10,743 nt of DNA from a virus (IMGVR_UViG_2690316267_000013); one strand, 5' to 3'; counted from the first letter of the stretch, positions 1 to 10,704 are shown. Notes: generated from the sequence alone by a model not told the origin. A program made the numbers and translations.

Positions 1-2334
1 TCAGGTTGTTGCAGGGTCGTCACATTTTGGCAGCCAGTCGCCGTAGCTTTCCTCTTTCAGCGTCAGGTTGGTCTGTATCCCCTGTTTGGTATGGCGCTTC
101 TCGTAATTCAGTCCGTATTCCTTCAGCATCACCGGCAGCCCCAGCCCGAACATTTTCAGACTGAGTACGTTCCGGTAGCCGTTTGCCTCCATGTAGGCCA
201 GATAGGCGTGATAGAGGTATTTACGGTAATTGCGCGGGATGATACTCGCGTTCCCCATATACATGCCGCTGGTCTGCGGCAGGGTTTCCAGATAGCCGAT
301 AAAATCAAACGTCGGGTCGGCATCCCGTTTGATGTTCAGCGCCTCGTCTGAGTTCTGCTGGGACTGAAGCAGTGACCGGGCGAGCATCGGGTCGCTGAAC
401 TTCTGCATCAGGTGACGCACGATGACCGCCAGCTCGCGGGTGATTTTGTCCTTAAGCTGCGGGTCGCGCTCCTGCGGGGCTATCTGTTCCGGGAAGTGAA
501 TAATCACCCGCCGGCGTGACACGCCGCCGCTGCGGTCGGTGAAGCGCATCGGGTTATTGTTCACGGCCAGAATCACCGCCGGGATGTGCGTGGAGTACGC
601 ATCCCGGTATTTCGGGTCAACGGACACCGCATCGCCGCCGGTGATGGCCTTGAGTCCGGCTCCGTCGCCGCTCCATTTTTCCTGGTCCGGCAGGCGTATC
701 AGTGAGAAGCCAGTTAACGCGGCACGTTCACGCGGGGATTCCAGCGTCTCAATGGTGGCCGACGTGGCGTTATCTTCCCCGGCCAGCAGGGTGGCTATTT
801 CGGCCATGATACTTTTGCCGCTGCCGCCGGGACCGGTCACCTCCAGAAAGAGCTGCCAGTCGTAGCGGTTTGCCAGCACCATAAACAGTGCGGCCAGAAT
901 CACGTCGCGTTTTTCCGCACGACCACCGGCGGCACGGTCAAGCCAGCGCCAGAACGCGGGGGCGTGGGTTTCCAGCGTTTCCCCTTCCACCGGCGGGGTG
1001 AAATCCACATCGCACAGGGTGCGCATCCAGTGTGACGGACTGTGCGGGTGGAACGTGCCGCTCTGCGTGTCGAGCACGCCGTTACGAAAGCCAATCAGGC
1101 GGCGGGAGGGGGCTTCCTGCTGCGGAATAATCAGCTTCAGGGTGTCCACCACGGAGGCCACCTTCCCGGAGGAGAACGGCGCGCGCAGCCGCTGAAACAG
1201 CCCGGCCACATCCCGGGCAAAGTCCTGTGGTGGCAGCACCTTCCAGACACCATTTTCATAACGGGACAGAAGCTGGCCGTTGGCATCGACCGCGAGCGCC
1301 TCGCCGTAATGCTCATAGATACGCATGGCCTTTTCGCTGGTACTCATGGCGGAAAACTCCGCTTCGCTCATGGTGTCGAACGGGCTTTCAGCCGGTGGCC
1401 GGATGGCATCATAAATGGCCTTACGGGTGGCTTCCCCGCCGTACTGCGTGAAGGCATCATTCCAGTCACCGAAGACCGGCGGCAGGGCAACAACACCTTC
1501 ACACGCATCTGCGGCTGCGGCGGCTTTTGTCTGGCCGTCACCGCTGAGGTCACGGTCAGCAGCAAGGACAATATGACAGGCCGGATGCTTCTGCCGGGCA
1601 AGGCTGGCCAGAGAAAGGAGGTTCACGGAAGAAAGCGCCACCATCACCGTTTCACCGGTCAGGTGATGTACGGTAAGTGCGGTCGCGTATCCCTCCGCTA
1701 TCCACAGACGTTTTCCGGCCTGATTCTGTCCTTCAAGGGTGTGACAGGTGCCCCTGACCTGTCCGCCTTTCAGGGTACGCTTACGGCCGTCAGCACTGAT
1801 TAACTGAAGGTTAACCAGTTCGCCGCTGTCGTCATACAGTGGCACCACAAGGTCACCGGCGCGCCAGCTCACGCCACCGGCTCTGTGTGTGCCGGTCAGC
1901 ATCCGGCATTCCCGGCCGGGAAAGCCCTTGCGGGTCAGGTAGGCGTTACCGGTTCCGGGACGGGTTTTTGCCATCAGGGTTTGTGCCAGTGCGGCGGCGT
2001 TCTTCCGGGCAGCGTCTGTTTCAGCAACGGCGGCGGCCGTCACTGCCGGGTCAGCCGGGGGCAGACTGCCGGTCACGGCAGCCACCTTTGCGGCCGCGTC
2101 GGACGGGGAGACACCAAACACCTTTTCAACCAGTTTCAGGCCGTCACCGGCACCACACTGATTGCAGTACCAGGTGCCGCGCCCCTCCCTGTCATCAAAA
2201 CGGAAGCGGTCACTCCCGCCACAGACCGGACAGGGCTGATGACGGTTTTTCAGCACCTGAATCCCCAGCGCCGGGAGAATACGCGGCCAGTGGCCGAGCG
2301 CATGGCTGACGGTGGCGGTTACGTTCATTTTCAT
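1..2334 (-). CDS. alpha: P4-type alpha replication protein: zinc-ribbon/TOPRIM primase fused to a P-loop helicase, 777 aa
   Basis: N-terminal Cys4 motif (CPVCGG...CNQCG), TOPRIM acidic motif (LAADRD), Walker A (GPGGSGKS). Length is identical to P4 alpha. SD aaggag lies about 9 nt upstream of the ATG at 2332-2334. Stop codon at 1-3. Confidence 0.9.
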   Translation of the reverse strand: MKMNVTATVSHALGHWPRILPALGIQVLKNRHQPCPVCGGSDRFRFDDREGRGTWYCNQCGAGDGLKLVEKVFGVSPSDAAAKVAAVTGSLPPADPAVTAAAVAETDAARKNAAALAQTLMAKTRPGTGNAYLTRKGFPGRECRMLTGTHRAGGVSWRAGDLVVPLYDDSGELVNLQLISADGRKRTLKGGQVRGTCHTLEGQNQAGKRLWIAEGYATALTVHHLTGETVMVALSSVNLLSLASLARQKHPACHIVLAADRDLSGDGQTKAAAAADACEGVVALPPVFGDWNDAFTQYGGEATRKAIYDAIRPPAESPFDTMSEAEFSAMSTSEKAMRIYEHYGEALAVDANGQLLSRYENGVWKVLPPQDFARDVAGLFQRLRAPFSSGKVASVVDTLKLIIPQQEAPSRRLIGFRNGVLDTQSGTFHPHSPSHWMRTLCDVDFTPPVEGETLETHAPAFWRWLDRAAGGRAEKRDVILAALFMVLANRYDWQLFLEVTGPGGSGKSIMAEIATLLAGEDNATSATIETLESPRERAALTGFSLIRLPDQEKWSGDGAGLKAITGGDAVSVDPKYRDAYSTHIPAVILAVNNNPMRFTDRSGGVSRRRVIIHFPEQIAPQERDPQLKDKITRELAVIVRHLMQKFSDPMLARSLLQSQQNSDEALNIKRDADPTFDFIGYLETLPQTSGMYMGNASIIPRNYRKYLYHAYLAYMEANGYRNVLSLKMFGLGLPVMLKEYGLNYEKRHTKQGIQTNLTLKEESYGDWLPKCDDPATT

Positions 2335-2348
2335 GGTGTTGTTCTCCT

Positions 2349-2669
2349 TCAGTGCAGTACCGGCGCTTTTATGTGACGGGCACAGAGTTCATCCATCACA
2401 ACCAGCCCGAGAAAGGACAGCGACGGCGCGGCCTTCAGGGGGCCGGATTCCATTAAATCTTCCAGCAGGGCACAGGCTATCTGACGCCCTTTTTCCTCAC
2501 CGTGCTGGCGCAGATAAAAGCCTTCCAGCTCAGCGGCGATGGCCGCCTCCAGTGACTCAAGGGTGAGATGCGGGTAGCGGTGCTGACGTTCGCACACGGT
2601 CAGCCAGGCACAGGCGACAGCGCGACGGTAAAGGGCAGCGCGTAAGACGGGCGGTAAGGGTGTTTTCAT
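2349..2669 (-). CDS. cnr: 106-aa protein immediately upstream of alpha; Cnr-like (P4 copy-number regulator) by size and synteny
   Basis: ORF of 106 aa with SD gggagg about 7 nt upstream of the ATG. Its stop (2349-2351) overlaps the alpha SD region. Same size and position as P4 orf106/cnr. The functional call is by synteny only. Confidence 0.55.
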
Positions 2670-2804
2670 TTGCTTTCCTCCCTGTGACAGATGACTGCAT
2701 TCCGTGCCGGTTGCATTAACTGATAAGGCATATCTGCGTCTCCTGAAGACGTGCGTATCCCTGCGCGAATACGCACATTTAATTTTTCGGGTGTCGTTTT
2801 TTAA

Positions 2805-3260
2805 TTACAGATAATTGCGGTAACTGTTATCCGGGGTGATTTCCGGGTCAGGCTCCGTGCGGGGAATTTCCCGCCATTCCCGCGCCACCGGTGCCGCCCG
2901 GCTGACCGGAACAGTGTCCTGCGGGTAAATATCCAGATATTTCTCCCGCCATTTCTGTAATTCCGGGTCTCCGGCCATTTCTTTCAGTACCGCATGCCGG
3001 TTTACGGGGCTGCGTTTGAACAGGTCAGGACGGTCACAGGTAAATTCCCGCAGAAAACGCCCCAGCGGGATGTCTGTGGTGCGCCCGTCAGCGAGGATAC
3101 GCACAAGGATACTGAATTTACGGCGGTACGGGTTCCAGACAATGTCCGGGCAGCGGTACGGCATTTCCCACGGAATACCGTCTTCCAGAATGCCGACCAC
3201 GGCCACATCGGGAAAACCGGCAGAACGGTAAATCTCACCGGGCTGGGGAAAATCAAACAT
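2805..3260 (-). CDS. Hypothetical 151-aa left-operon protein (P4 orf151 position and size)
   Basis: ORF of 151 aa. Its ATG (3258-3260) overlaps the stop of the upstream 95-aa gene by 8 nt (ATGTTTGA), suggesting translational coupling. No motif recognised. Confidence 0.6.
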   Translation of the reverse strand: MFDFPQPGEIYRSAGFPDVAVVGILEDGIPWEMPYRCPDIVWNPYRRKFSILVRILADGRTTDIPLGRFLREFTCDRPDLFKRSPVNRHAVLKEMAGDPELQKWREKYLDIYPQDTVPVSRAAPVAREWREIPRTEPDPEITPDNSYRNYL

Positions 3261-3540
3261 GCGTCCTGTCTCCCCGGTCTTTCTGCTGGGCGAGAAAATC
3301 GCGGCACAGGCCTTTGGCTTTCAGCTCATTCAGCACAAAATCAATATCTTCATTCAGGTAGCTGAAAATATGCGGAATGTAGAGCTGATGCAGGCCGGAG
3401 AGTTCACGGTGAATCAAATCACCCCCAACAAACTGGGATACGGCGCTGGCGCGGTTGAGCTTATGGTAAGCCTCAATGCTGAGGTGTTCACGGGCGTCAT
3501 GACGTGCTGAGACGGTCTGAGGGGCTTTTTTATTACGCAC
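3253..3540 (-). CDS. 95-aa protein with GTG start; possible equivalent of P4 epsilon (helper-prophage derepression) by position
   Basis: GTG at 3538-3540 is preceded by a strong SD (GGAGG, 6-nt spacer). It reads to TGA at 3253-3255. The ORF track merges this into a longer 177-aa ORF, but the SD-GTG context supports the 95-aa product. The functional call is positional only. Confidence 0.45.
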
Positions 3541-3730
3541 GGGACACCTCCACCACCGGCAGACGGGCAGCAAGGGAGAGCACATAGTCACGGACAAGGG
3601 AACGGCGGGCGCTGCGTTCATCACCGGCGACGGTGCGAAGCATACAGATACGGGGATGACGGCCTGCGCGACGGACAGCCGCAAACACAAAGACAAATTC
3701 AGGGTGTGAGGGGGTAAGGGTTGTAGCCAT
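3533..3730 (-). CDS. 65-aa first ORF of the left operon, Kil-like by position; its SD overlaps a seqC-like RNA target site
   Basis: ATG at 3728-3730 with SD AAGGAGG (plus-strand 3739-3745). Its stop overlaps the GTG of the next gene (GTGCGTAA). The ORF track extends this frame to 199 aa, but the upstream part is low-complexity and covers the immunity RNA region. Confidence 0.45.
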
Positions 3731-3741
3731 GATGGCAGCCT

Positions 3742-3782
3742 CCTTGAAGTAACAGTTACAGCTACCACTGGAGTTCCTACGC
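3742..3782 (-). promoter_or_regulatory. seqC-like target site (ccttgaagtaac ... gagttcctacgc) complementary to seqB of the candidate CI RNA
   Basis: Shares two sequence blocks with the site at 3963-3990. Both blocks are complementary to 3805-3828. Overlaps the SD of the 65-aa ORF. Confidence 0.5.
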
Positions 3783-3789
3783 TCATGGG

Positions 3790-3875
3790 TGGTAGCCCGG
3801 ACGGGGGTAGGAATACCGGCCTTCAAGGAAACCGGCCAGCCCGAAGGCTGCCCCGCCCGGACCACCATTATCTGA
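3790..3875 (-). ncRNA. cI: Candidate CI-like immunity RNA containing a seqB element (approximate boundaries)
   Basis: Non-coding stretch between the two target-like sites. It contains 3805-3828 (gggggtaggaataccggccttcaagg), the reverse complement of blocks in both flanking sites. A stable hairpin with a UUCG tetraloop on the minus-strand RNA lies at 3837-3850, and a possible closing stem pairs ggtggtccgg with ccgggctaccacc. Ends were not determined. Confidence 0.4.
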
Positions 3876-3962
3876 CAGAGGCTACGGTTTAAAAACCACA
3901 GCCAGAAAAACAGGTGTGCCGAAGCAACGACGTAAAAAAAGACGCATGGCGCGTCATATGTC

Positions 3963-3990
3963 GCCTTGAAGTAACTCGGGTTCCTACGCC
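3963..3990 (-). promoter_or_regulatory. seqA-like target site in the leader of the early leftward transcript
   Basis: ccttgaagtaac at 3964-3975 and ggttcctacgcc at 3979-3990, both complementary to the seqB-like element at 3805-3828. Confidence 0.5.
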
Positions 3991-4018
3991 CGGCTGCCGA
4001 TTTTGCGGCAGCGGAAAA

Positions 4019-4048
4019 ACTATATCCGCAAATGCCGGAAAAAGGCAA
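4019..4048 (-). promoter_or_regulatory. Candidate sigma70 early leftward promoter (PLE-like)
   Basis: On the minus strand: -35 TTGCCT (4043-4048), 18-nt spacer, -10 TATAGT (4019-4024). This would start the transcript about 20 nt upstream of the seqA-like site. By eye only. Confidence 0.35.
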
Positions 4049-4083
4049 GCCAGAAAAAGGGAGTTTTTGCAGAGCGGGCATCA

Positions 4084-4350
4084 TCATGCGTCGTACCCCC
4101 GTTTGCGTCCGGCAATGCGTCCGGCCATCCATGCGGTGACTTCAGAGTGCAGCCAGGCCACATTTTTACCGCCAAGACTCACCTGCGGCGGAAATTCCCC
4201 CTTACGGATGAGTTCATAGATGGTCGAGCGTGACAGGCCGCACAGGTGCATCACTTCCGGCAGACGTAAAAAACGCTCCTGCGTGATGTCCGGCAGCGGC
4301 ATCAGTGGCGTCACAGGGGCGGGAGACGGGGAAGAAAAAACAGCTTGCAT
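4084..4350 (-). CDS. vis: Vis/AlpA-family small HTH DNA-binding protein (late-promoter regulator and excision factor), 88 aa
   Basis: 88-aa ORF with SD gaggt about 7 nt upstream of the ATG. AlpA-like signature (LRLPEV...[16 protein letters not shown]). Same size and position as P4 vis (orf88). Confidence 0.75.
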
Positions 4351-4452
4351 CGGGCTACCTCGTTAATGTCCATACAGCACCGGATAAGTCCGTCCGGCTT
4401 CGGGTAGCGCTTTATTTTGTGAATATTTTTGGCAGACGCAACAGGGGGGATT

Positions 4453-4470
4453 TGTTCCGGCAGCCTTACA
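4453..4470 (-). promoter_or_regulatory. TGT-N12-ACA box (Delta/Ogr-type activator site) for the leftward late promoter (PLL-like) upstream of vis
   Basis: TGTtccggcagccttACA with exact 12-nt spacing, centred about 110 bp upstream of the vis ATG. Confidence 0.4.
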
Positions 4471-4496
4471 ATGACTGTGTGTTTTTTGTTCATTCC

Positions 4497-4525
4497 CACT
4501 TAAAGTCATTTAAAGCCACTTAAAG
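4497..4525. repeat. Three tandem 10-bp repeats CA(C/T)TTAAAG with one-helical-turn periodicity
   Basis: cacttaaag at 4497-4505, catttaaag at 4507-4515, cacttaaag at 4517-4525. Confidence 0.6.
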
Positions 4526-4629
4526 CAATTCGTAATTTTTATAGTGAAATACAAATCGTTTCTTCTTATTCATTCACGGCGAATTAATAAAAACAAACAG
4601 TAGTAAACAGCACAAAAAGTCCATGAGCG

Positions 4630-4733
4630 GGTGAACAGTGGTGAACAGACGGTGAACAGTCATTACTGCGATTGTTCACCCTTTAACTTACTGTATTACT
4701 TATCTTTTTTCTTATGGTGAACAGAGGTGAACA
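4630..4733. repeat. Iteron cluster: six copies of the P4 type-I octamer TGTTCACC (five as GGTGAACA, one inverted); putative alpha-binding origin
   Basis: GGTGAACA at 4630-4637, 4640-4647, 4651-4658, 4716-4723 and 4726-4733; TGTTCACC at 4673-4680. The cluster is flanked by a direct repeat aaacaaacagta at 4591-4602 and 4748-4759. Confidence 0.6.
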
Positions 4734-4812
4734 GTAAAATATAAAAAAACAAACAGTAAGCCGGTTTTTCCTGCGACCTTTTCCTGGCTTGCCGGTCTGA
4801 GGATGAGTCTCC

Positions 4813-4830
4813 TGTGTCAGGGCTGGCACA
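4813..4830 (+). promoter_or_regulatory. TGT-N12-ACA box (Delta/Ogr-type activator site) of the sid late promoter (Psid-like)
   Basis: TGTgtcagggctggcACA with exact 12-nt spacing, centred about 80 bp upstream of the sid ATG, consistent with a -55 activator site. Confidence 0.5.
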
Positions 4831-4902
4831 TCTGCAATGCGTCGTGTTGTTGTCCGGTGTACGTCACAATTTTCTTAATCTGAAGTGACGAGGAGCCGGA
4901 AA

Positions 4903-5637
4903 ATGTCTGACAACACCATCCCTGAATATCTGCAACCCGCACTGGCACAACTGGAAAAGGCCAGAGCCGCTCATCTTGAGAACGCCCGACTGATGGATGA
5001 GACCGTCAAGGCCATTGAACGGGCAGAGCAGGAAAAAAATGCGCTGGCGCAGGCCGACGGAAATGACGCTGATGACTGGCGCACAGCCTTTCGTGCAGCC
5101 GGTGGTGTCCTGAGCGACGAGCTGAAACAGCGCCACATTGAGCGCGTGGCACGCCGGGAGCTGGTACAGGAATATGACAATCTGGCCGTGGTGCTGAATT
5201 TTGAACGTGAACGCCTGAAAGGGGCGTGTGACAGCACGGCCACCGCCTACCGGAAGGCACATCATCACCTTCTGAGTCTGTATGCAGAGCATGAGCTGGA
5301 ACACGCCCTGAATGAAACCTGTGAGGCGCTTGTCCGGGCAATGCATCTGAGTATCCTGGTACAGGAAAATCCGCTCGCCAACACCACCGGCCATCAGGGC
5401 TACGTCGCACCGGAAAAGGCTGTCATGCAGCAGGTGAAATCATCGCTGGAACAGAAAATTAAACAGATGCAAATCAGCCTCACCGGCGAGCCGGTTCTCC
5501 GGCTGACCGGACTGTCAGCGGCAACACTCCCGCACATGGATTATGAGGTGGCAGGCACACCGGCACAGCGCAAGGTGTGGCAGGACAAAATAGACCAGCA
5601 GGGAGCAGAGCTTAAGGCCAGAGGACTGCTGTCATGA
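4903..5637 (+). CDS. sid: Sid, capsid size-determination external scaffold protein, 244 aa
   Basis: ATG at 4903 preceded by SD aggag with a 7-nt spacer; the ORF track starts 18 nt earlier at an in-frame GTG at 4885. Length from the ATG equals P4 Sid. Coiled-coil-like, Ala/Glu/Leu-rich sequence. Stop overlaps the delta start (ATGA). Confidence 0.85.
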   Translation: MSDNTIPEYLQPALAQLEKARAAHLENARLMDETVKAIERAEQEKNALAQADGNDADDWRTAFRAAGGVLSDELKQRHIERVARRELVQEYDNLAVVLNFERERLKGACDSTATAYRKAHHHLLSLYAEHELEHALNETCEALVRAMHLSILVQENPLANTTGHQGYVAPEKAVMQQVKSSLEQKIKQMQISLTGEPVLRLTGLSAATLPHMDYEVAGTPAQRKVWQDKIDQQGAELKARGLLS

Positions 5638-6134
5638 TTTACTGCCCGTCGTGTGGACATGTTGCTCACACCCGTCGCGCACATTTCATGGACGATGGCA
5701 CCAAGATAATGATTGCACAGTGCCGGAATATTTATTGCTCTGCGACATTTGAAGCGAGTGAAAGCTTTTTCTCTGACAGTAAAGATTCAGGAATGGAATA
5801 CATTTCAGGCAAACAGAGATACCGCGATTCACTGACGTCGGCCTCCGGCAGTATGAAACGCCCGAAAAGAATGCTTGTTACCGGATATTGTTGTCGGAGA
5901 TGTAAAGGCCTTGCACTGTCAAGAACATCGCGGCGTCTGTCTCAGGAAGTCACCGAGCGTTTTTATGTGTGCACGGATCCGGGCTGTGGTCTGGTGTTTA
6001 AAACGCTTCAGACCATCACCCGCTTCATTGTCCGCCCGGTCACGCCGGACGAACTGGCAGAACGCCTGCATGAAAAACAGGAACTGCCGCCAGTACGGTT
6101 AAAAACACAATCATATTCGCTGCGTCTGGAATGA
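5634..6134 (+). CDS. delta: Delta, late transcription activator with two Ogr-like zinc-finger modules, 166 aa
   Basis: Two Cys4 modules (CPSCGH...CRNIYC and CRRCKG...CTDPGC). Length equals P4 Delta. Start is coupled to the sid stop. Confidence 0.85.
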   Translation: MIYCPSCGHVAHTRRAHFMDDGTKIMIAQCRNIYCSATFEASESFFSDSKDSGMEYISGKQRYRDSLTSASGSMKRPKRMLVTGYCCRRCKGLALSRTSRRLSQEVTERFYVCTDPGCGLVFKTLQTITRFIVRPVTPDELAERLHEKQELPPVRLKTQSYSLRLE

Positions 6135-6207
6135 GGGCTGCCGGTTAACACCGGCCGTCGCCACACACCGTATTTTTATTCTTCAGCATGATGAGAAAGA
6201 GATAACG

Positions 6208-6780
6208 ATGGAAAGCACAGCCTTACAGCAGGCCTTTGACACCTGTCAGAATAACAAAGCAGCATGGCTGCAACGCAAAAATGAGCTGGCTGCGGCCGAA
6301 CAGGAATATCTGCGGCTTCTGTCAGGAGAAGGCAGAAACGTCAGTCGCCTGGACGAATTACGCAATATTATCGAAGTCAGAAAATGGCAGGTGAATCAGG
6401 CCGCCGGTCGTTATATTCGTTCGCATGAAGCCGTTCAGCACATCAGCATCCGCGACCGGCTGAATGATTTTATGCAGCAGCACGGCACAGCACTGGCGGC
6501 GGCACTGGCACCGGAGCTGATGGGCTACAGTGATCTGACGGCCATTGCCCGAAACTGTGCCATACAGCGTGCCACAGATGCCCTGCGTGAAGCCCTCCTG
6601 TCCTGGCTTGCGAAGGGTGAAAAAATTAATTATTCCGCACAGGATAGCGACATTTTAACGACCATCGGATTCAGGCCTGACGCGGCTTCGGTGGATGACA
6701 GCCGTGAAAAATTCACCCCTGCGCAGAACATGATTTTTTCGCGTAAAAGTGCGCAACTGGCATCACGTCAGTCTGTGTAA
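6208..6780 (+). CDS. psu: Psu, polarity suppression (Rho antagonist) and capsid decoration protein, 190 aa
   Basis: 190-aa ORF, last gene of the sid-delta-psu operon, directly upstream of cos. Same length and position as P4 Psu. Confidence 0.85.
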   Translation: MESTALQQAFDTCQNNKAAWLQRKNELAAAEQEYLRLLSGEGRNVSRLDELRNIIEVRKWQVNQAAGRYIRSHEAVQHISIRDRLNDFMQQHGTALAAALAPELMGYSDLTAIARNCAIQRATDALREALLSWLAKGEKINYSAQDSDILTTIGFRPDAASVDDSREKFTPAQNMIFSRKSAQLASRQSV

Positions 6781-6810
6781 AATTCCCCGAAAATCCGCCC
6801 GTTTTTACTG

Positions 6811-6849
6811 AAAAAAGCCATGCATCGATAAGGTGCATGGCTTTGCATG
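6811..6849. terminator. Hairpin terminator after psu, bidirectional (strong on minus strand, weaker on plus)
   Basis: 9-bp stem agccatgca/tgcatggct (6816-6824 and 6834-6842) with a 9-nt loop. It is flanked by A6 on the left (a U6 tract for minus-strand transcripts) and ttgcatgcgttt on the right. Confidence 0.5.
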
Positions 6850-6944
6850 CGTTTCCCTGCCTCATTTTCTGCAGACCGCGCCATTCCCGGCGCGGTCTGA
6901 GCGTGTCAGTGCAACTGCATTAAAACCGCCCCGCAAAGCGGGCG

Positions 6945-6963
6945 GGCGAGGCGGGGAAAGCAC
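6945..6963. other. cos site: 19-nt P2/P4-type cohesive-end sequence GGCGAGGCGGGGAAAGCAC
   Basis: Exact match to the 19-nt cohesive end shared by P2 and P4 as I recall it. Located between psu and the cargo gene, as in P4. Flanked by inverted repeats at 6872-6899 and 6977-7015. Confidence 0.7.
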
Positions 6964-7254: not shown

Positions 7255-8964
7255 ATGAGTATGTTTCAGATATCAGCTGGAGTGTTCTTTGATTTAGATA
7301 AAATAGAAAAACACGATGGCACATTTGTTTTTTATTCAAATGTTGATGTGTCTTTCTCGGTGGAAAACACCTCCCCTCTTTTTAAAGCAAATAAAATAAG
7401 TCATGATGGTATAAACTGTTATGTGGTAAACTATACTCTCCTGACCGAAAAACCAGAACGAATTGAAGCTGGAGTCGTAGTTAGGGCTGGTGATGAGGAT
7501 TATAGGCAACAATTTATTTTATTATGGGAATTCTATTTTGATTGTGTGGCTAGAGTAGAAAAAGAATCGGTTAAAAAAATATGTGCATTATCAAATTTTA
7601 ATAAACATCACTCAAAAATTGCGCTTGAAGTTGCCCCATATTTAGTGGAGATTAATCGAAGAGTTTCATTTGATGATGTCTCTGGGTTTTCTGCTTTTAT
7701 TAAAGATGTAGTGAATCTAAATAGATCTGCCTTTAAATCTTTAATGGCAGCGTTAAAAATAATTAGTGATTCAAAAGAATCATTGTCAACCAACTTTGAC
7801 CTGACTTATTCCATGTTAGTCTATGCCTTGGAGTCTTTGTCTCAAAGAAATGATAACTATAAGTCTGATTGGGATGACTACGATCAAAAAACCAGAGGTG
7901 AATTAGAGTCTGTATTTGAGCATATGCCTGGTGAGGATGTTTGTAAAATTAAATCAATACTTATTGAAGGCAAACAATTCAGATTACAAAAAAGGTTCAA
8001 AGATTTTATACTGAAAAATCTTGAAGAAAATTATTTCAATGAAACAGAGAGATATCCAATCCGCTATAGCTTCCTTAGTAGAGCTTTAGATAATTTATAC
8101 AAAATCAGGTCTTCTTTTGTCCATGAGCTTAAGCCACTTGATGCAATGATCTCGAAAGCCTACAATCCTGTTGGTGATTGTCTGGTTCTTTTTGGCGAAC
8201 CTCACTTCAGTTACTCTGGATTGCTTCGACTTCTTCGCCATGTGATAATAAATTTTTGCCGTAAAAACTACAGTCAAAAAAGAGAGTCTGTTAATTGGGT
8301 GATGGAAACATCGGGTGTAATGGTTGCAGAGATATCTGCACAATATTGGCTCTGGAATGCAGACGGATTTACAGCTAAAAGTATAGCGAAGTGGTTTAGT
8401 GAATACCTAAATATGTTAAATTTAGGCGAAGTCACTGATTTGCAGTCTATCATGGACAAAATTGAGATAATCTATGATCAATCCAAAAAAGAATATAAAA
8501 ATGGGTTGTTGCATTTTTATTTCTTATATAACTTAATGCATAATGGAAATAAGGGTGAATGGCTTGAGTTTGCGAACAAGCGAAGTTCTATACTTGTTTG
8601 TGATATATATTGGTATTCATGCTCTCCATATTTATATAAATCATTTACTAATGTTTCAAATGGTATTGCTGATATAAAAACATTGAGAAACTTTTTGTCT
8701 TGTTTTAACGAATATGATAAAAATAAATTTAAGCCAAATCGTTTAAATCTCCCTGCAATGACCGAAGTAATTATGTTGGCTTGCGCAGCAAATTCATTCT
8801 TCAGAATTGGAATGTATCAAGACTATGTTTTAATGGGCAATAGAGCGATGAGAGAAATTGCTTCAGTAAAAGATGTATTTTATTATATAAAAGAACGATT
8901 AAGTAATTCACAACTTATTGAATTGGACGAGTGCTTGAGATTGTATAGAAAAAAGGGGGGCTAA
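7255..8964 (+). CDS. Low-GC cargo protein of unknown function in the cos-int hotspot (569 aa from the first ATG; 567 aa from the better-placed ATG at 7261); candidate anti-phage or abortive-infection protein
   Basis: Long uninterrupted ORF with SD aagga 6 nt before the ATG at 7261. Composition is AT-rich and Lys/Asn/Ile/Phe/Tyr-rich, contrasting with the GC-rich satellite core. No Walker A and no YxDD motif. One R-x4-H motif (IRSSFVHE, codons at 8104-8127). Occupies the position where P4 carries gop-beta-cII. Confidence 0.8.
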   Translation: MSMFQISAGVFFDLDKIEKHDGTFVFYSNVDVSFSVENTSPLFKANKISHDGINCYVVNYTLLTEKPERIEAGVVVRAGDEDYRQQFILLWEFYFDCVARVEKESVKKICALSNFNKHHSKIALEVAPYLVEINRRVSFDDVSGFSAFIKDVVNLNRSAFKSLMAALKIISDSKESLSTNFDLTYSMLVYALESLSQRNDNYKSDWDDYDQKTRGELESVFEHMPGEDVCKIKSILIEGKQFRLQKRFKDFILKNLEENYFNETERYPIRYSFLSRALDNLYKIRSSFVHELKPLDAMISKAYNPVGDCLVLFGEPHFSYSGLLRLLRHVIINFCRKNYSQKRESVNWVMETSGVMVAEISAQYWLWNADGFTAKSIAKWFSEYLNMLNLGEVTDLQSIMDKIEIIYDQSKKEYKNGLLHFYFLYNLMHNGNKGEWLEFANKRSSILVCDIYWYSCSPYLYKSFTNVSNGIADIKTLRNFLSCFNEYDKNKFKPNRLNLPAMTEVIMLACAANSFFRIGMYQDYVLMGNRAMREIASVKDVFYYIKERLSNSQLIELDECLRLYRKKGG

Positions 8965-8980
8965 CCCCTTTTATTTTTAA
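8949..8980. terminator. Bidirectional intrinsic terminator shared by the convergent cargo and int genes
   Basis: aaaagggggg-ctaa-cccctttt hairpin (G/C stem 8955-8968) with T-tracts on both sides (tttatttttaa on plus; U6 on minus). The stop codons of both genes (8962-8964 and 8961-8963) lie inside the loop. Confidence 0.5.
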
Positions 8981-10157
8981 CGTATTCTCCCCACCAATCC
9001 ATCAATTCAATTCGCTGCACGAGATAAGTAGAACGATTGTATGCTTTTCTAACTTCATTTTTATCACTGTGGGCTAAGGCAGACTCGATAACATCAGGAT
9101 TTAATCCAGCTTCATTCATGGCTGTACTTGCTATTGAACGTAATCCATGGGCAACTAATTTTCCGCCAAAACCAATACGTTTTAAAGCTGCATTTGCAGT
9201 CTGACTGTTCATTGGTTTCTTTGGGTCATTCCGACTCGGAAAAACATATTCACGATGAGCACTAATAGGCTTCATCACATTAAGAATCTCTAATGCCTGA
9301 GATGATAGAGGAATTATGTGTTCCCGTTTAGCCTTCATCCGTTCGGCAGGAATCGTCCAGAGCTTTGCATGAAGATCGATTTCTTCCCACCGAGTACTGG
9401 AGGCTTCAGAAGGGCGCACAAGAGTCAGGAGTTGCCATTCAATTAGACAGCGAGTCGGGATAGACAGATTTGACATGACTAAAGAACGCATCAGCTTTGG
9501 TAATTCTTCAGGTCGAAGCGTCGGCATGTTTTGTTTTTTTGGCTTTTCGAAGGCCATGCCAACACCTGATGCTGGGTTTGCATCAATCAAGCCAGTGTTA
9601 ACCGCATAAATCATTATTTCGTTAATGCGTTGCACCAGACGACGTACAGTCTCTAATGCCCCACGAGCTTTGACTGGCTCAAGTGCTTCGACCAATGTTC
9701 TAGCTTTGATCTGCTGAACGGGCATCTCACCAACGGCGGGGAATACATCTTTTTCCAATGAGCGCCAAATATCTTTTGCATAATCAGGGGTAACACTTTT
9801 GCTTTTGAGCTGAAACCAATTAGCGGCGACCGTCGAGAAAATACTGTCCTGTGCGATTTGCTGCTGTTCCTCTGCAATTTCAGCTTGAATTTGCGGGTCA
9901 ATTCCGTTGGCTAACAAGGAAAGGTAATCCGCTCTTAAGCGTCGGGCGTCAGCAAGTGAAAGGGCTGGGAAGGCTCCTAGCCCCATCATTGTCCGTTGCT
10001 TTGTTGCCGGACGTTGATAACGGAAACGCCATAACTTCTTACCGTTCGTTTTAACGAGTAGAAAAAGACCATCGCCATCATGCAACGTTAGATCCTTTTC
10101 TAACGCTTTAGCGCGCAGTACTTCTGTGTTGGTCAGGGGGCGTGTCGTTCTTGCCAA
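8961..10157 (-). CDS. int: P4-type tyrosine integrase (N-terminal arm-binding domain plus catalytic domain), 398 aa, TTG start
   Basis: N-terminus typical of P4-family integrases (LTNTEV...GLFLLVKTNGKKLWRFRYQ...LGAFPALSLADAR). Catalytic-type HGLR and C-terminal Tyr region (RKAYNRSTY). SD gaaggag lies 8 nt upstream of the TTG at 10155-10157. Adjacent to and co-oriented with ssrA. Confidence 0.9.
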   Translation of the reverse strand: MARTTRPLTNTEVLRAKALEKDLTLHDGDGLFLLVKTNGKKLWRFRYQRPATKQRTMMGLGAFPALSLADARRLRADYLSLLANGIDPQIQAEIAEEQQQIAQDSIFSTVAANWFQLKSKSVTPDYAKDIWRSLEKDVFPAVGEMPVQQIKARTLVEALEPVKARGALETVRRLVQRINEIMIYAVNTGLIDANPASGVGMAFEKPKKQNMPTLRPEELPKLMRSLVMSNLSIPTRCLIEWQLLTLVRPSEASSTRWEEIDLHAKLWTIPAERMKAKREHIIPLSSQALEILNVMKPISAHREYVFPSRNDPKKPMNSQTANAALKRIGFGGKLVAHGLRSIASTAMNEAGLNPDVIESALAHSDKNEVRKAYNRSTYLVQRIELMDWWGEYVKNKRG

Positions 10158-10176: not shown

Positions 10177-10230
10177 ATTGGTATACGCGTTTAGGTATAC
10201 ATCCTACCGTATACCTAAACGTATACCAAT
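10177..10230. promoter_or_regulatory. Imperfect palindrome with four GGTATAC motifs between the int SD and ssrA; candidate Int/Vis operator or attP arm-type sites
   Basis: Left arm attggtatacgcgtttaggtatac (10177-10200) and right arm gtatacctaaacgtataccaat (10209-10230) are near-perfect reverse complements separated by 8 bp. GGTATAC occurs at 10180-10186 and 10194-10200, and inverted at 10209-10215 and 10222-10228. Confidence 0.5.
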
Positions 10231-10271
10231 AATCACTGGATTTAGCTGGATATCCTCGGACAACGGTAGAC

Positions 10272-10306
10272 ACAAAAAAGCCCGCAGAGCTTGTGCTATG
10301 CGGGCT
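10272..10306 (-). terminator. Intrinsic terminator downstream of ssrA, lying inside the element
   Basis: 8-bp stem agcccgca/tgcgggct (10279-10286 and 10299-10306) with a 12-nt loop, followed on the minus strand by UUUUUGUG (plus 10271-10278). Confidence 0.5.
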
Positions 10307-10341
10307 TTCAGGATTTCTCCGGACGTATCCGGAAGAGCAAG

Positions 10342-10704
10342 TGGTGGAGCTGGCGGGAGTTGAACCCGCGTCCGAAATTCCTACATCCTCGGTACTACAT
10401 GCTTAGTCAGTCTTTACATTCGCTTGCCAGCTGCGGACGGACACGCCACTAACAAACTAGCCTGATTAAGTTTTAACGCTTCAACCCCAGGCAGGGCTTC
10501 CACGCGATCTCTTTTGGGTTTGACCTCTCTTGATCCCCGTCCTAAGAGCGGAGGCTAGGGAGAGAGGGCTCTAAGCAGGTTATTAAGCTGCTAAAGCGTA
10601 GTTTTCGTCGTTTGCGACTATTTTTTGCGGCTTTTTACGAGGCCAACCGCCCCTCGGCATGCACCTTGGGTTTCGCAAATCCCGTCGAATCCAGAATCAG
10701 CCCC
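10342..10704 (-). ncRNA. ssrA: tmRNA (SsrA), 363 nt, enterobacterial type
   Basis: The reverse complement reads GGGGCTGATTCTGGATTCGACGGG ... and ends ...GTTCAACTCCCGCCAGCTCCACCA, matching E. coli tmRNA as I recall it. It includes the tag-peptide reading frame GCAAACGACGAAAACTACGCTTTAGCAGCTTAA (ANDENYALAA stop) at 10583-10615. Confidence 0.95.

Follow-up and report, generated by a model that had tools for sequence, protein, structure and literature searches.

The 3′ end of the tmRNA gene ssrA in the DNA analysed here (a stretch of 10,743 nucleotides, hereafter the window) very probably forms the left junction, attL, of an integrated P4 satellite prophage of ~10.9 kb, which carries an integrase/attP module of the CP4-57 type. 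The sequence-only reading had proposed a P4-type integration at the 3′ end of ssrA with the gene rebuilt by the element, and both the repeat found at the far end and the break of homology at empty sites are favourable to this proposal. We refine it in that, besides the terminator, both the 3′ trailer and the final 15 nt of ssrA are provided by the element. The junction itself, the empty sites, the far-end repeat, the arm repeats and the conservation of the terminator are direct observations, and the features around the junction are as follows.

8961..10157, minus strand: int, a gene for a P4/CP4-57-type tyrosine integrase, with a TTG start after AAGGAG, oriented like ssrA
10177..10231: integrase arm-type repeats (P arm), comprising the tandem 12-mers CGTATACCTAAA and CGTATACCAATA and the inverted GGTATACG copies
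10270..10309, minus strand: intrinsic terminator, with a 14-pair stem at 10276-10309 and a U-run at 10270-10279 that starts inside the 3′ arm of the stem
10316..10336, minus strand: trailer hairpin (CCGGAUACGUCCGG core), predicted by folding of the window trailer and situated in the part of pre-tmRNA (3′ trailer) that the element supplies
10342..10356: core identity block TGGTGGAGCTGGCGG, formed by the final 15 nt of ssrA and common to attB and the presumed attP
10357..10364: T-loop segment GAGTTGAA, matched imperfectly at the far end by AGTTTGAA, which adjoins the core from the element side
10342..10704, minus strand: ssrA (tmRNA gene), complete, with CCA at 10342-10344 and the tag ANDENYALAA

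The tmRNA gene had been described as complete through its CCA at 10342, and ARAGORN and Rfam RF00023 (295.8 bits, full-length model 1-374) agree on this. A match to ssrA was obtained in all 5426 complete E. coli genomes, and in 2639 of them, about half, the site proved to be empty. There, ssrA is joined directly to the ypjA-side flank, ...ccgtccaatcatgat|TGGTGGAGC... (also read as ...ccgtccaatcatgat|TGGTGGAGCTGGCGGG... in strain PD7, L003). The homology between the empty sites and the window breaks exactly at 10342, at the CCA, thus indicating that the DNA to the left of this position belongs to the element. The earlier statement that element DNA follows immediately downstream of ssrA is therefore upheld by the 2639 empty-site genomes, all of which carry another flank. 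As the comparison with these uninterrupted loci (PD7 among them) also clearly showed, the terminator of the window is missing from them and has no counterpart in the empty sites, in line with the claim that the element provides the terminator of the tmRNA gene. In the empty loci, the next terminator-like hairpin, which is common to ypjA, lies ~140-165 nt beyond the CCA.

The terminator and the trailer might, conversely, represent the native chromosomal end of ssrA, the element having been inserted downstream of them. A very similar terminator does follow ssrA in K-12, and the similarity to the window extends through the terminator to ~10267-10271, and then diverges, in 1876 of the 5426 genomes, K-12 included. 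However, this sequence is absent from all 2639 empty sites, which diverge at the first base after the CCA, and the matching trailer/terminator stretch of K-12 falls within the annotated CP4-57 prophage, whose annotated start is located within the last ~15 nt of ssrA. Moreover, the lambdoid prophages inserted at the same site bear yet another downstream sequence (L004), and in other species the trailer-terminator module always accompanies the integrase. The native-end reading is refuted by the empty-site comparison, and we regard it as extremely improbable.

The evidence from other species comes from a search for integrase relatives, with one genome taken per species, which gave 80 loci from about 50 taxa of Enterobacterales. 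A complete tmRNA gene lies on the same strand beside the integrase gene in 62 of the 80 loci, and the distance from the CCA to int is about 175-220 nt in most of these 62. The plan of the spacer between ssrA and int is constant: a trailer hairpin, a short linker and a terminator of the form AAAGCCCGC...GCGGGCUUUUUU.

As to the flank of the E. coli empty site (L003 2840-3000), its first 25 nt after the CCA, AUCAUGAUUGGACGGUGUAAGGAC, resemble the Citrobacter/Kluyvera family trailer AAUCAUGAUCCGGAUACGUCCGGUGAAGUAC minus the hairpin. The resemblance is weak (p about 0.02 in the best comparisons), and the empty-site trailer of E. coli may itself be a relic of an older element.

A direct repeat of the ssrA 3′ end, 15-25 nt long, had been expected at the opposite end of the element beyond the window. 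The window is E. coli DNA: over all 10743 nt it is 99.99% identical to the genome of strain SCPM-O-B-12142 (L006), and it is ~98% identical to that of ATCC 8739 (L001). No far-end repeat was found inside the window because it is located outside, ~490 nt to the left of window position 1 in L006. An intact far junction, attR, is present in strain 09-02E (L089) and in a prophage from IMG/VR (L091), where TGGTGGAGCTGGCGG, a perfect 15-nt repeat, is followed by AGTTTGAA at the place occupied by GAGTTGAA in ssrA. The expectation holds for these two copies and only in part for the lineage of the window itself, which has lost 8 nt. In L006, the far junction reads ...ccgtccaatcatga|GCTGGCGGAGTTTGAA|taaatgc..., the far copy being atcatga|GCTGGCGGAGTTTGAA, and the deletion includes the CCA and leaves GCTGGCGG plus AGTTTGAA, i.e., 8 exact and 8 imperfect nt. 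In the 24.8 kb of L006, the only two occurrences of the pattern GCTGGCGG(N)AGTT(N)GAA are at the two ends of the element (0 expected by chance). In the ATCC 8739 locus, the far-end copy was missed by a generic repeat search because it differs by indels.

Altogether, attR was met in five forms: intact (09-02E and the IMG/VR prophage), with a 1-nt deletion in TUM9757 (L087), the same as in psaA of K-12, with a 4-nt deletion in CFS3292 (L088), with a 5-nt deletion in ATCC 8739, and with the 8-nt deletion in the lineage of the window. All five have one and the same ypjA-side flank and one and the same element end, and all the deletions can be written as starting from a single base, just 3′ of CCGCCAGC in the ssrA sense. 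This common start could mark the site of cleavage by Int, or it could reflect selection for locking the element in. Islands at the ssrA 3′ end, which use the same integration site as the element studied here, are said to have been described by Williams in 2003 (J Bacteriol, "Traffic at the tmRNA gene"), their displaced ends lacking 1, 4 or 5 nt right after CGCCAGC and tandem arrays being among them. The displaced end differs between the present lineage and K-12 in that it lacks 8 nt in the former and 1 nt in the latter. Table 1 of PMC10107115, compiled largely from Williams 2003, gives 1-, 4- and 5-nt deletions at many ssrA islands, and the 8-nt deletion that removes the CCA is not among the variants in that table.

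As the intact form of attR shows, the part of ssrA that the presumed attP shares is precisely its final 15 nt, next to which stands the T-loop segment in imperfect form. The attP junction of the element is predicted to read ...CCGGAAGAGCAAG-TGGTGGAGCTGGCGG-AGTTTGAATAAAT..., and the attB junction left by excision in the lineage of the window is predicted to read ...CCGCCAGC|tcatgattgg, in which the CCA is missing.

The product of int contains the Pfam domains Arm-DNA-bind_3 (PF13356), Phage_int_M (PF22022) and Phage_integrase (PF00589), all well above the cut-offs. It is 60% identical over 394 aa to IntA of the K-12 prophage CP4-57, and the R...HxxR...H...Y motifs are visible in the alignment of the two proteins. 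Since int starts at 10157 and ssrA ends at 10342, both on the minus strand, the integrase gene adjoins the intact 3′ end of its target gene. The stretch between them was found to contain local inverted and direct repeats, the inverted copy being closer to the int start. The sequence-only reading had mentioned a palindromic int operator here. A palindrome does exist, at 10177-10231, but it lies outside the range to which it had been assigned and is best read as a set of putative Int arm-type binding sites. The 23-mer CGTATACCTAAWCGTATACCAAT, which consists of two tandem 12-mers (window 10208-10230), occurs only twice in L006, near int and 55-60 nt inside the far-end core, with 0 occurrences expected. 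The arm repeats are thus separated from the core by ~110 nt on the int side and by 53-61 bp on the far side, and their number, orientation and spacing match those of the annotated arm repeats of P4 attP. In P4, the repeats near int repress this gene, providing autoregulation, and by analogy the repeats of the window may also serve to repress int. A search of the palindrome against Rfam at a permissive threshold gave only matches to microRNA families, which were rejected as spurious.

The likeness to P4 (NC_001609), which integrates at leuX, extends to the whole layout of the attachment site. On the int side, both have int, one inverted and two tandem 12-bp arm repeats, a spacer of ~110-112 bp and the core; on the far side, the core, which in both repeats the end of an RNA gene (3′), is followed by ~53 bp, two tandem arm repeats and crr. 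The difference is in the target, as the core of P4 matches tRNA-Leu and the core described here matches ssrA. The sequence of the arm repeats also distinguishes the element from K-12 CP4-57, with GTATACC in the former and the GGGCC(T/C)A type in the latter.

A metagenome contig (OJJY01000154.1, L129, ~420 nt around the core) shows a different integrase module, with repeats of the GGGTCCCA/GGGTGCCA type and an IsrM-type trailer and terminator, joined through an intact 15-nt core to the far side of the present element, namely its arm repeats, crr and alpha. This arrangement could be either a tandem array or a swap of the int module.

The integration at ssrA can be pictured as follows. The integrase would bind the 12-bp arm repeats flanking the 15-bp core, whose sequence matches the final 15 nt of ssrA exactly; the crossover would take place within the core, probably in the CCGCCAG(C) segment. 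After integration, the host would contribute ssrA up to the crossover, and the element would contribute the remaining bases through the CCA, so that in this junction the part of the core 3′ of the crossover should be element-derived. The element would also give the trailer with its small hairpin and the terminator, whose end lies ~72 nt beyond the CCA. Transcripts started at the ssrA promoter would then end inside the element, and the normal 3′ processing enzymes would trim the precursor back to the CCA. The terminator, situated ~115 nt upstream of the co-oriented int, probably shields int from read-through of ssrA, which is strongly transcribed. The native 3′ end of ssrA would be displaced to attR, and its copy in the lineage of the window is devoid of the CCA and of the greater part of the acceptor-stem 3′ strand. 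As the displaced native end is damaged, precise excision in the L006 lineage would be expected to leave a dead, defective tmRNA gene, as with CP4-57.

The terminator had been placed at 10272-10306, which is correct to within a few bases (stem 10276-10309). On the sense strand of ssrA, it consists of a 14-pair G+C-rich hairpin followed by UUUUUUGUGU, and it is also picked by a simple pattern scan. The 84-nt stretch folds with -32.1 kcal/mol against -18.9 +/- 3.0 for shuffled sequences (z = -4.45), none of the 200 shuffles being as good. Across 60 distinct relatives, 96.8% of the cells are paired and 4 pairs are changed on both sides, and the observed score was not reached in any of 500 shuffles. 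The covariation is modest (9 cells in the 4 pairs), most of the signal being plain conservation among 60 mutually related sequences, and the comparison is supportive rather than decisive for a terminator structure maintained across the relatives.

The hairpin at 10276-10309 might mainly serve the element, either as an insulator of int or as a structural or protein-binding part of attP, the termination of tmRNA transcription being incidental; we consider the chances of this as appreciable, if somewhat short of even. It is suggested by the position of the co-oriented int, which starts ~115 nt beyond the U-run, by the joint travel of the module and the integrase across genera, and by the same layout of P4 attP with its comparable stretch between core and arm. 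On the other hand, the hairpin has the textbook form of an RNA terminator, with a U-run on the sense strand of ssrA only. Besides, a benefit for the element is compatible with the rebuilding of the ssrA end proposed above, as a terminator at this place ends the ssrA transcript whatever it was selected for.

Several data on related RNAs bear on this part of the transcript. The homologous hairpin is the annotated terminator of IsrM, a Salmonella small RNA detected by Northern hybridization (PMC2330248, PMC3174252), and this analogy argues indirectly for a terminator that is functional in the cell. The RNase E cuts that start the 3′ maturation of K-12 tmRNA are given as CACCA|A|A|AUU in the passage of PMC5291269 that cites Lin-Chao 1999. 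In the K-12 genome, these sites fall in the trailer DNA supplied by CP4-57, and the maturation of tmRNA evidently tolerates the differing trailers brought by different elements. The K-12 pre-tmRNA is reportedly 457 nt long (Komine, 1994), a length that would fit termination at the CP4-57 copy of the terminator.

A further hairpin, that of the trailer, is predicted at the same place in all 60 distinct members of the family, with several classes of stem sequence. The number of cells changed on both sides is 32 versus 12 in shuffles, as counted on a sequence-based alignment that does not fit every subclass, and this gives partial support to the view that the hairpin is conserved as a structure. 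It could act as a signal for processing, bind a protein or form part of a small RNA that is released. The stem classes comprise a short one (CCGGAUACGUCCGG) and longer ones, CAUCGG...UACCAGA...CCGAUG and CUUC..GAUGG...CCAUC..GAAG; the window has the short CCGG class, in contrast to the long CAUCGG...CCGAUG class in CP4-57.

The ~70-nt piece 3′ of the CCA, which is cut from pre-tmRNA, might even be an element-encoded small RNA of the 3′-external-spacer type, abundant owing to the strong ssrA promoter, an idea to which we assign a low probability. Such an RNA could comprise the hairpin, the short conserved linker and the U-tailed terminator, and could be carried between hosts by elements of this integrase family. 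A precedent is IsrM, a functional Salmonella small RNA in which the same module makes up the 3′ third. IsrM was detected experimentally by Northern hybridization and is located between STM2762 and STM2763 (PMC2330248). Positions 212-329 (the last ~118) of the IsrM model (Rfam RF02763) align to 10274-10360 on the minus strand of the window (30.6 bits, E = 3e-7), and this 3′ third is made up of an ssrA end in degenerate form, then a trailer and a terminator almost the same as that of the window. The 5′ two thirds, with the target-pairing regions, have no counterpart in the window. It appears from the alignment that the 3′ third of IsrM is a displaced ssrA end together with the trailer-terminator module carried by an island whose integrase belongs to this family. 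The window itself was rejected as an isrM gene, as the match is partial and scores 30.6 bits against a gathering score of 376.

Traces of excision were sought among the same 5426 genomes. The natural isolate WB61 (NZ_CP020025.1; L005 2998-3020) has no element, and its ssrA ends with ...CCCGCCAG-CCA, which means that the 5-nt-deleted end is joined to the ssrA body; no other genome of the 5426 shows this. The 5 nt that the WB61 gene lacks belong to the acceptor stem (3′ strand), and U357, which forms the G3:U357 wobble pair, is one of them; the tmRNA is predicted to be inactive. Such a site is expected if attL and a deleted attR recombine within CTGGCGG; alternatively, it is the target that was used by the ATCC 8739 element. 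Either origin would place the crossover in this segment, and the WB61 site is the sole hint of an earlier recombination event. A 1-nt scar was detected in the empty site of only one genome, that of the laboratory strain DTU-1, and an 8-nt scar in none of the 5426.

The attP junction of this element, whether excised or packaged, was not found in IMG/VR or in metagenome contigs. In IMG/VR, a 28-nt pattern gave a single match, the intact attR of the prophage mentioned above (L091). In the metagenome contigs, a 23-nt pattern gave 95 matches: 92 of the loci read share one unrelated flank, apparently inside a gene, two (L143 and L174) have a variant or cut-off copy of this flank, and the remaining one is the junction with another int module described above (L129).

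These results bear on the question of whether the element is still mobile. It may be a fixed, immobile remnant, in which case the junction would be the fossil record of an ancient integration event and attR would be eroding by neutral decay. In the L006 lineage, attR lacks 8 nt of the core, and having lost this outer half it may have ceased to be a substrate for excision by Int; the failure to find an attP form or an 8-nt scar in the 5426 genomes points in the same direction. Against this, the element has retained Int, AlpA/Vis, alpha, sid, delta, psu and cos in intact form, its backbone shares 98% identity with that of the functional P4, and related copies have an intact attR. Furthermore, the slot holds different elements in different strains and is cleanly empty in half of them, which argues for ongoing traffic. 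We therefore hold the remnant view to be rather unlikely, though by no means negligible; it is compatible with the reading of the region as attL and differs from it only on present-day mobility.

The closest known counterpart is CP4-57 of K-12 (intA/slpA, alpA; attL in ssrA and attR as psaA). The two elements have the same target, the same 15-nt overlap and the same outer attR flank; both bear an AlpA-type regulator, and their terminators are homologous, with roughly 95% DNA similarity from ssrA to ~10271. Their bodies, in contrast, are unrelated, with a 22-kb mosaic in CP4-57 and P4 satellite genes here. Excision of CP4-57 deletes T357 of ssrA, so that tagging is lost, the tmRNA becomes inactive and the cells switch to ArfA (PMC10107115). 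By analogy, the loss of the satellite by precise excision in the L006 lineage would abolish trans-translation and shift ribosome rescue to ArfA.

In essence, the window contains an ordinary attL, and the picture is already familiar from CP4-57 of K-12. P4-type integration at ssrA, the rebuilding of the gene end and the damage to displaced ends are known in kind (Kirby 1994; Williams 2003; Onodera 2022), as is the exchange of int and cargo modules among P4-like satellites. What may be new is small: the complete loss of the CCA end from an attR, the occurrence of several attR forms in a single element family of a single species, the conservation of the hairpin in the trailer, and the homology between the 3′ end of IsrM and the module. 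These attR forms (intact, -1, -4, -5 and -8) could help to locate the Int cleavage site and to examine whether the erosion is selected for locking the element in. It also follows from the genome comparison that in about one third of E. coli genomes, including K-12, the last 15 nt of ssrA, the context for 3′ processing and the terminator come from a mobile element.

The remaining part of the window confirms the satellite nature of the element. Its main features are as follows.

1..6963: P4 backbone, comprising the alpha primase gene (1-2334), epsilon, the cI/CI-RNA region, sid, delta, psu and the cos end
4084..4350, minus strand: gene for an AlpA/Vis-type small DNA-binding protein (Pfam Phage_AlpA, E = 7e-21)
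6945-6963: cos cohesive end GGCGAGGCGGGGAAAGCAC, 19 nt, present as in P4
7255..8964, plus strand: cargo ORF of 569 aa between cos/psu and int, in the variable hotspot of P4

Positions 1-6944 are 98.1% identical to positions 4636-11624 of satellite phage P4 (NC_001609), and the 98% identity of the two satellites runs from alpha to cos. The homology starts at the alpha stop codon and is lost a few bases past the cohesive end, at ~6971. Pfam matches in the backbone include Psu, Ogr_Delta and primase domains, and Rfam matches to C4 and isrK were obtained in the immunity region at 3785-4025. The set characteristic of P4-like satellites is all present: sid, delta, psu, the alpha primase, the CI RNA immunity region and cos. 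The window is thus a nearly complete P4 variant that ends just before the far junction. The AlpA/Vis-type protein is the counterpart of P4 ORF88, given in the P4 record as excisionase and transcriptional regulator, and on the strength of this homology it is likely to be the excision and directionality factor.

Unlike P4, the element carries a CP4-57-type integrase and the 569-aa ORF as cargo. The gop-beta-cII-int-attP segment of P4 (P4 positions 1-4290) is replaced by this ORF and the ssrA-specific int/att module, the cargo, int and attP having been exchanged as one block. The 569-aa ORF, which belongs to the swapped module and lies outside the att site, gave no match in a Pfam search of 7255-8964 and a weak PADLOC match to Cas13-ApeA (E = 7e-6, residues 150-275), and it may be regarded as a candidate anti-phage gene of unspecified type.

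Finally, ~70 nt of the window (3858-3927), within the C4/CI-RNA and isrK-like immunity region, cannot be aligned to ATCC 8739, whereas the flanks on both sides are ~98% identical. This divergence may reflect a difference in immunity specificity between otherwise nearly identical satellites.
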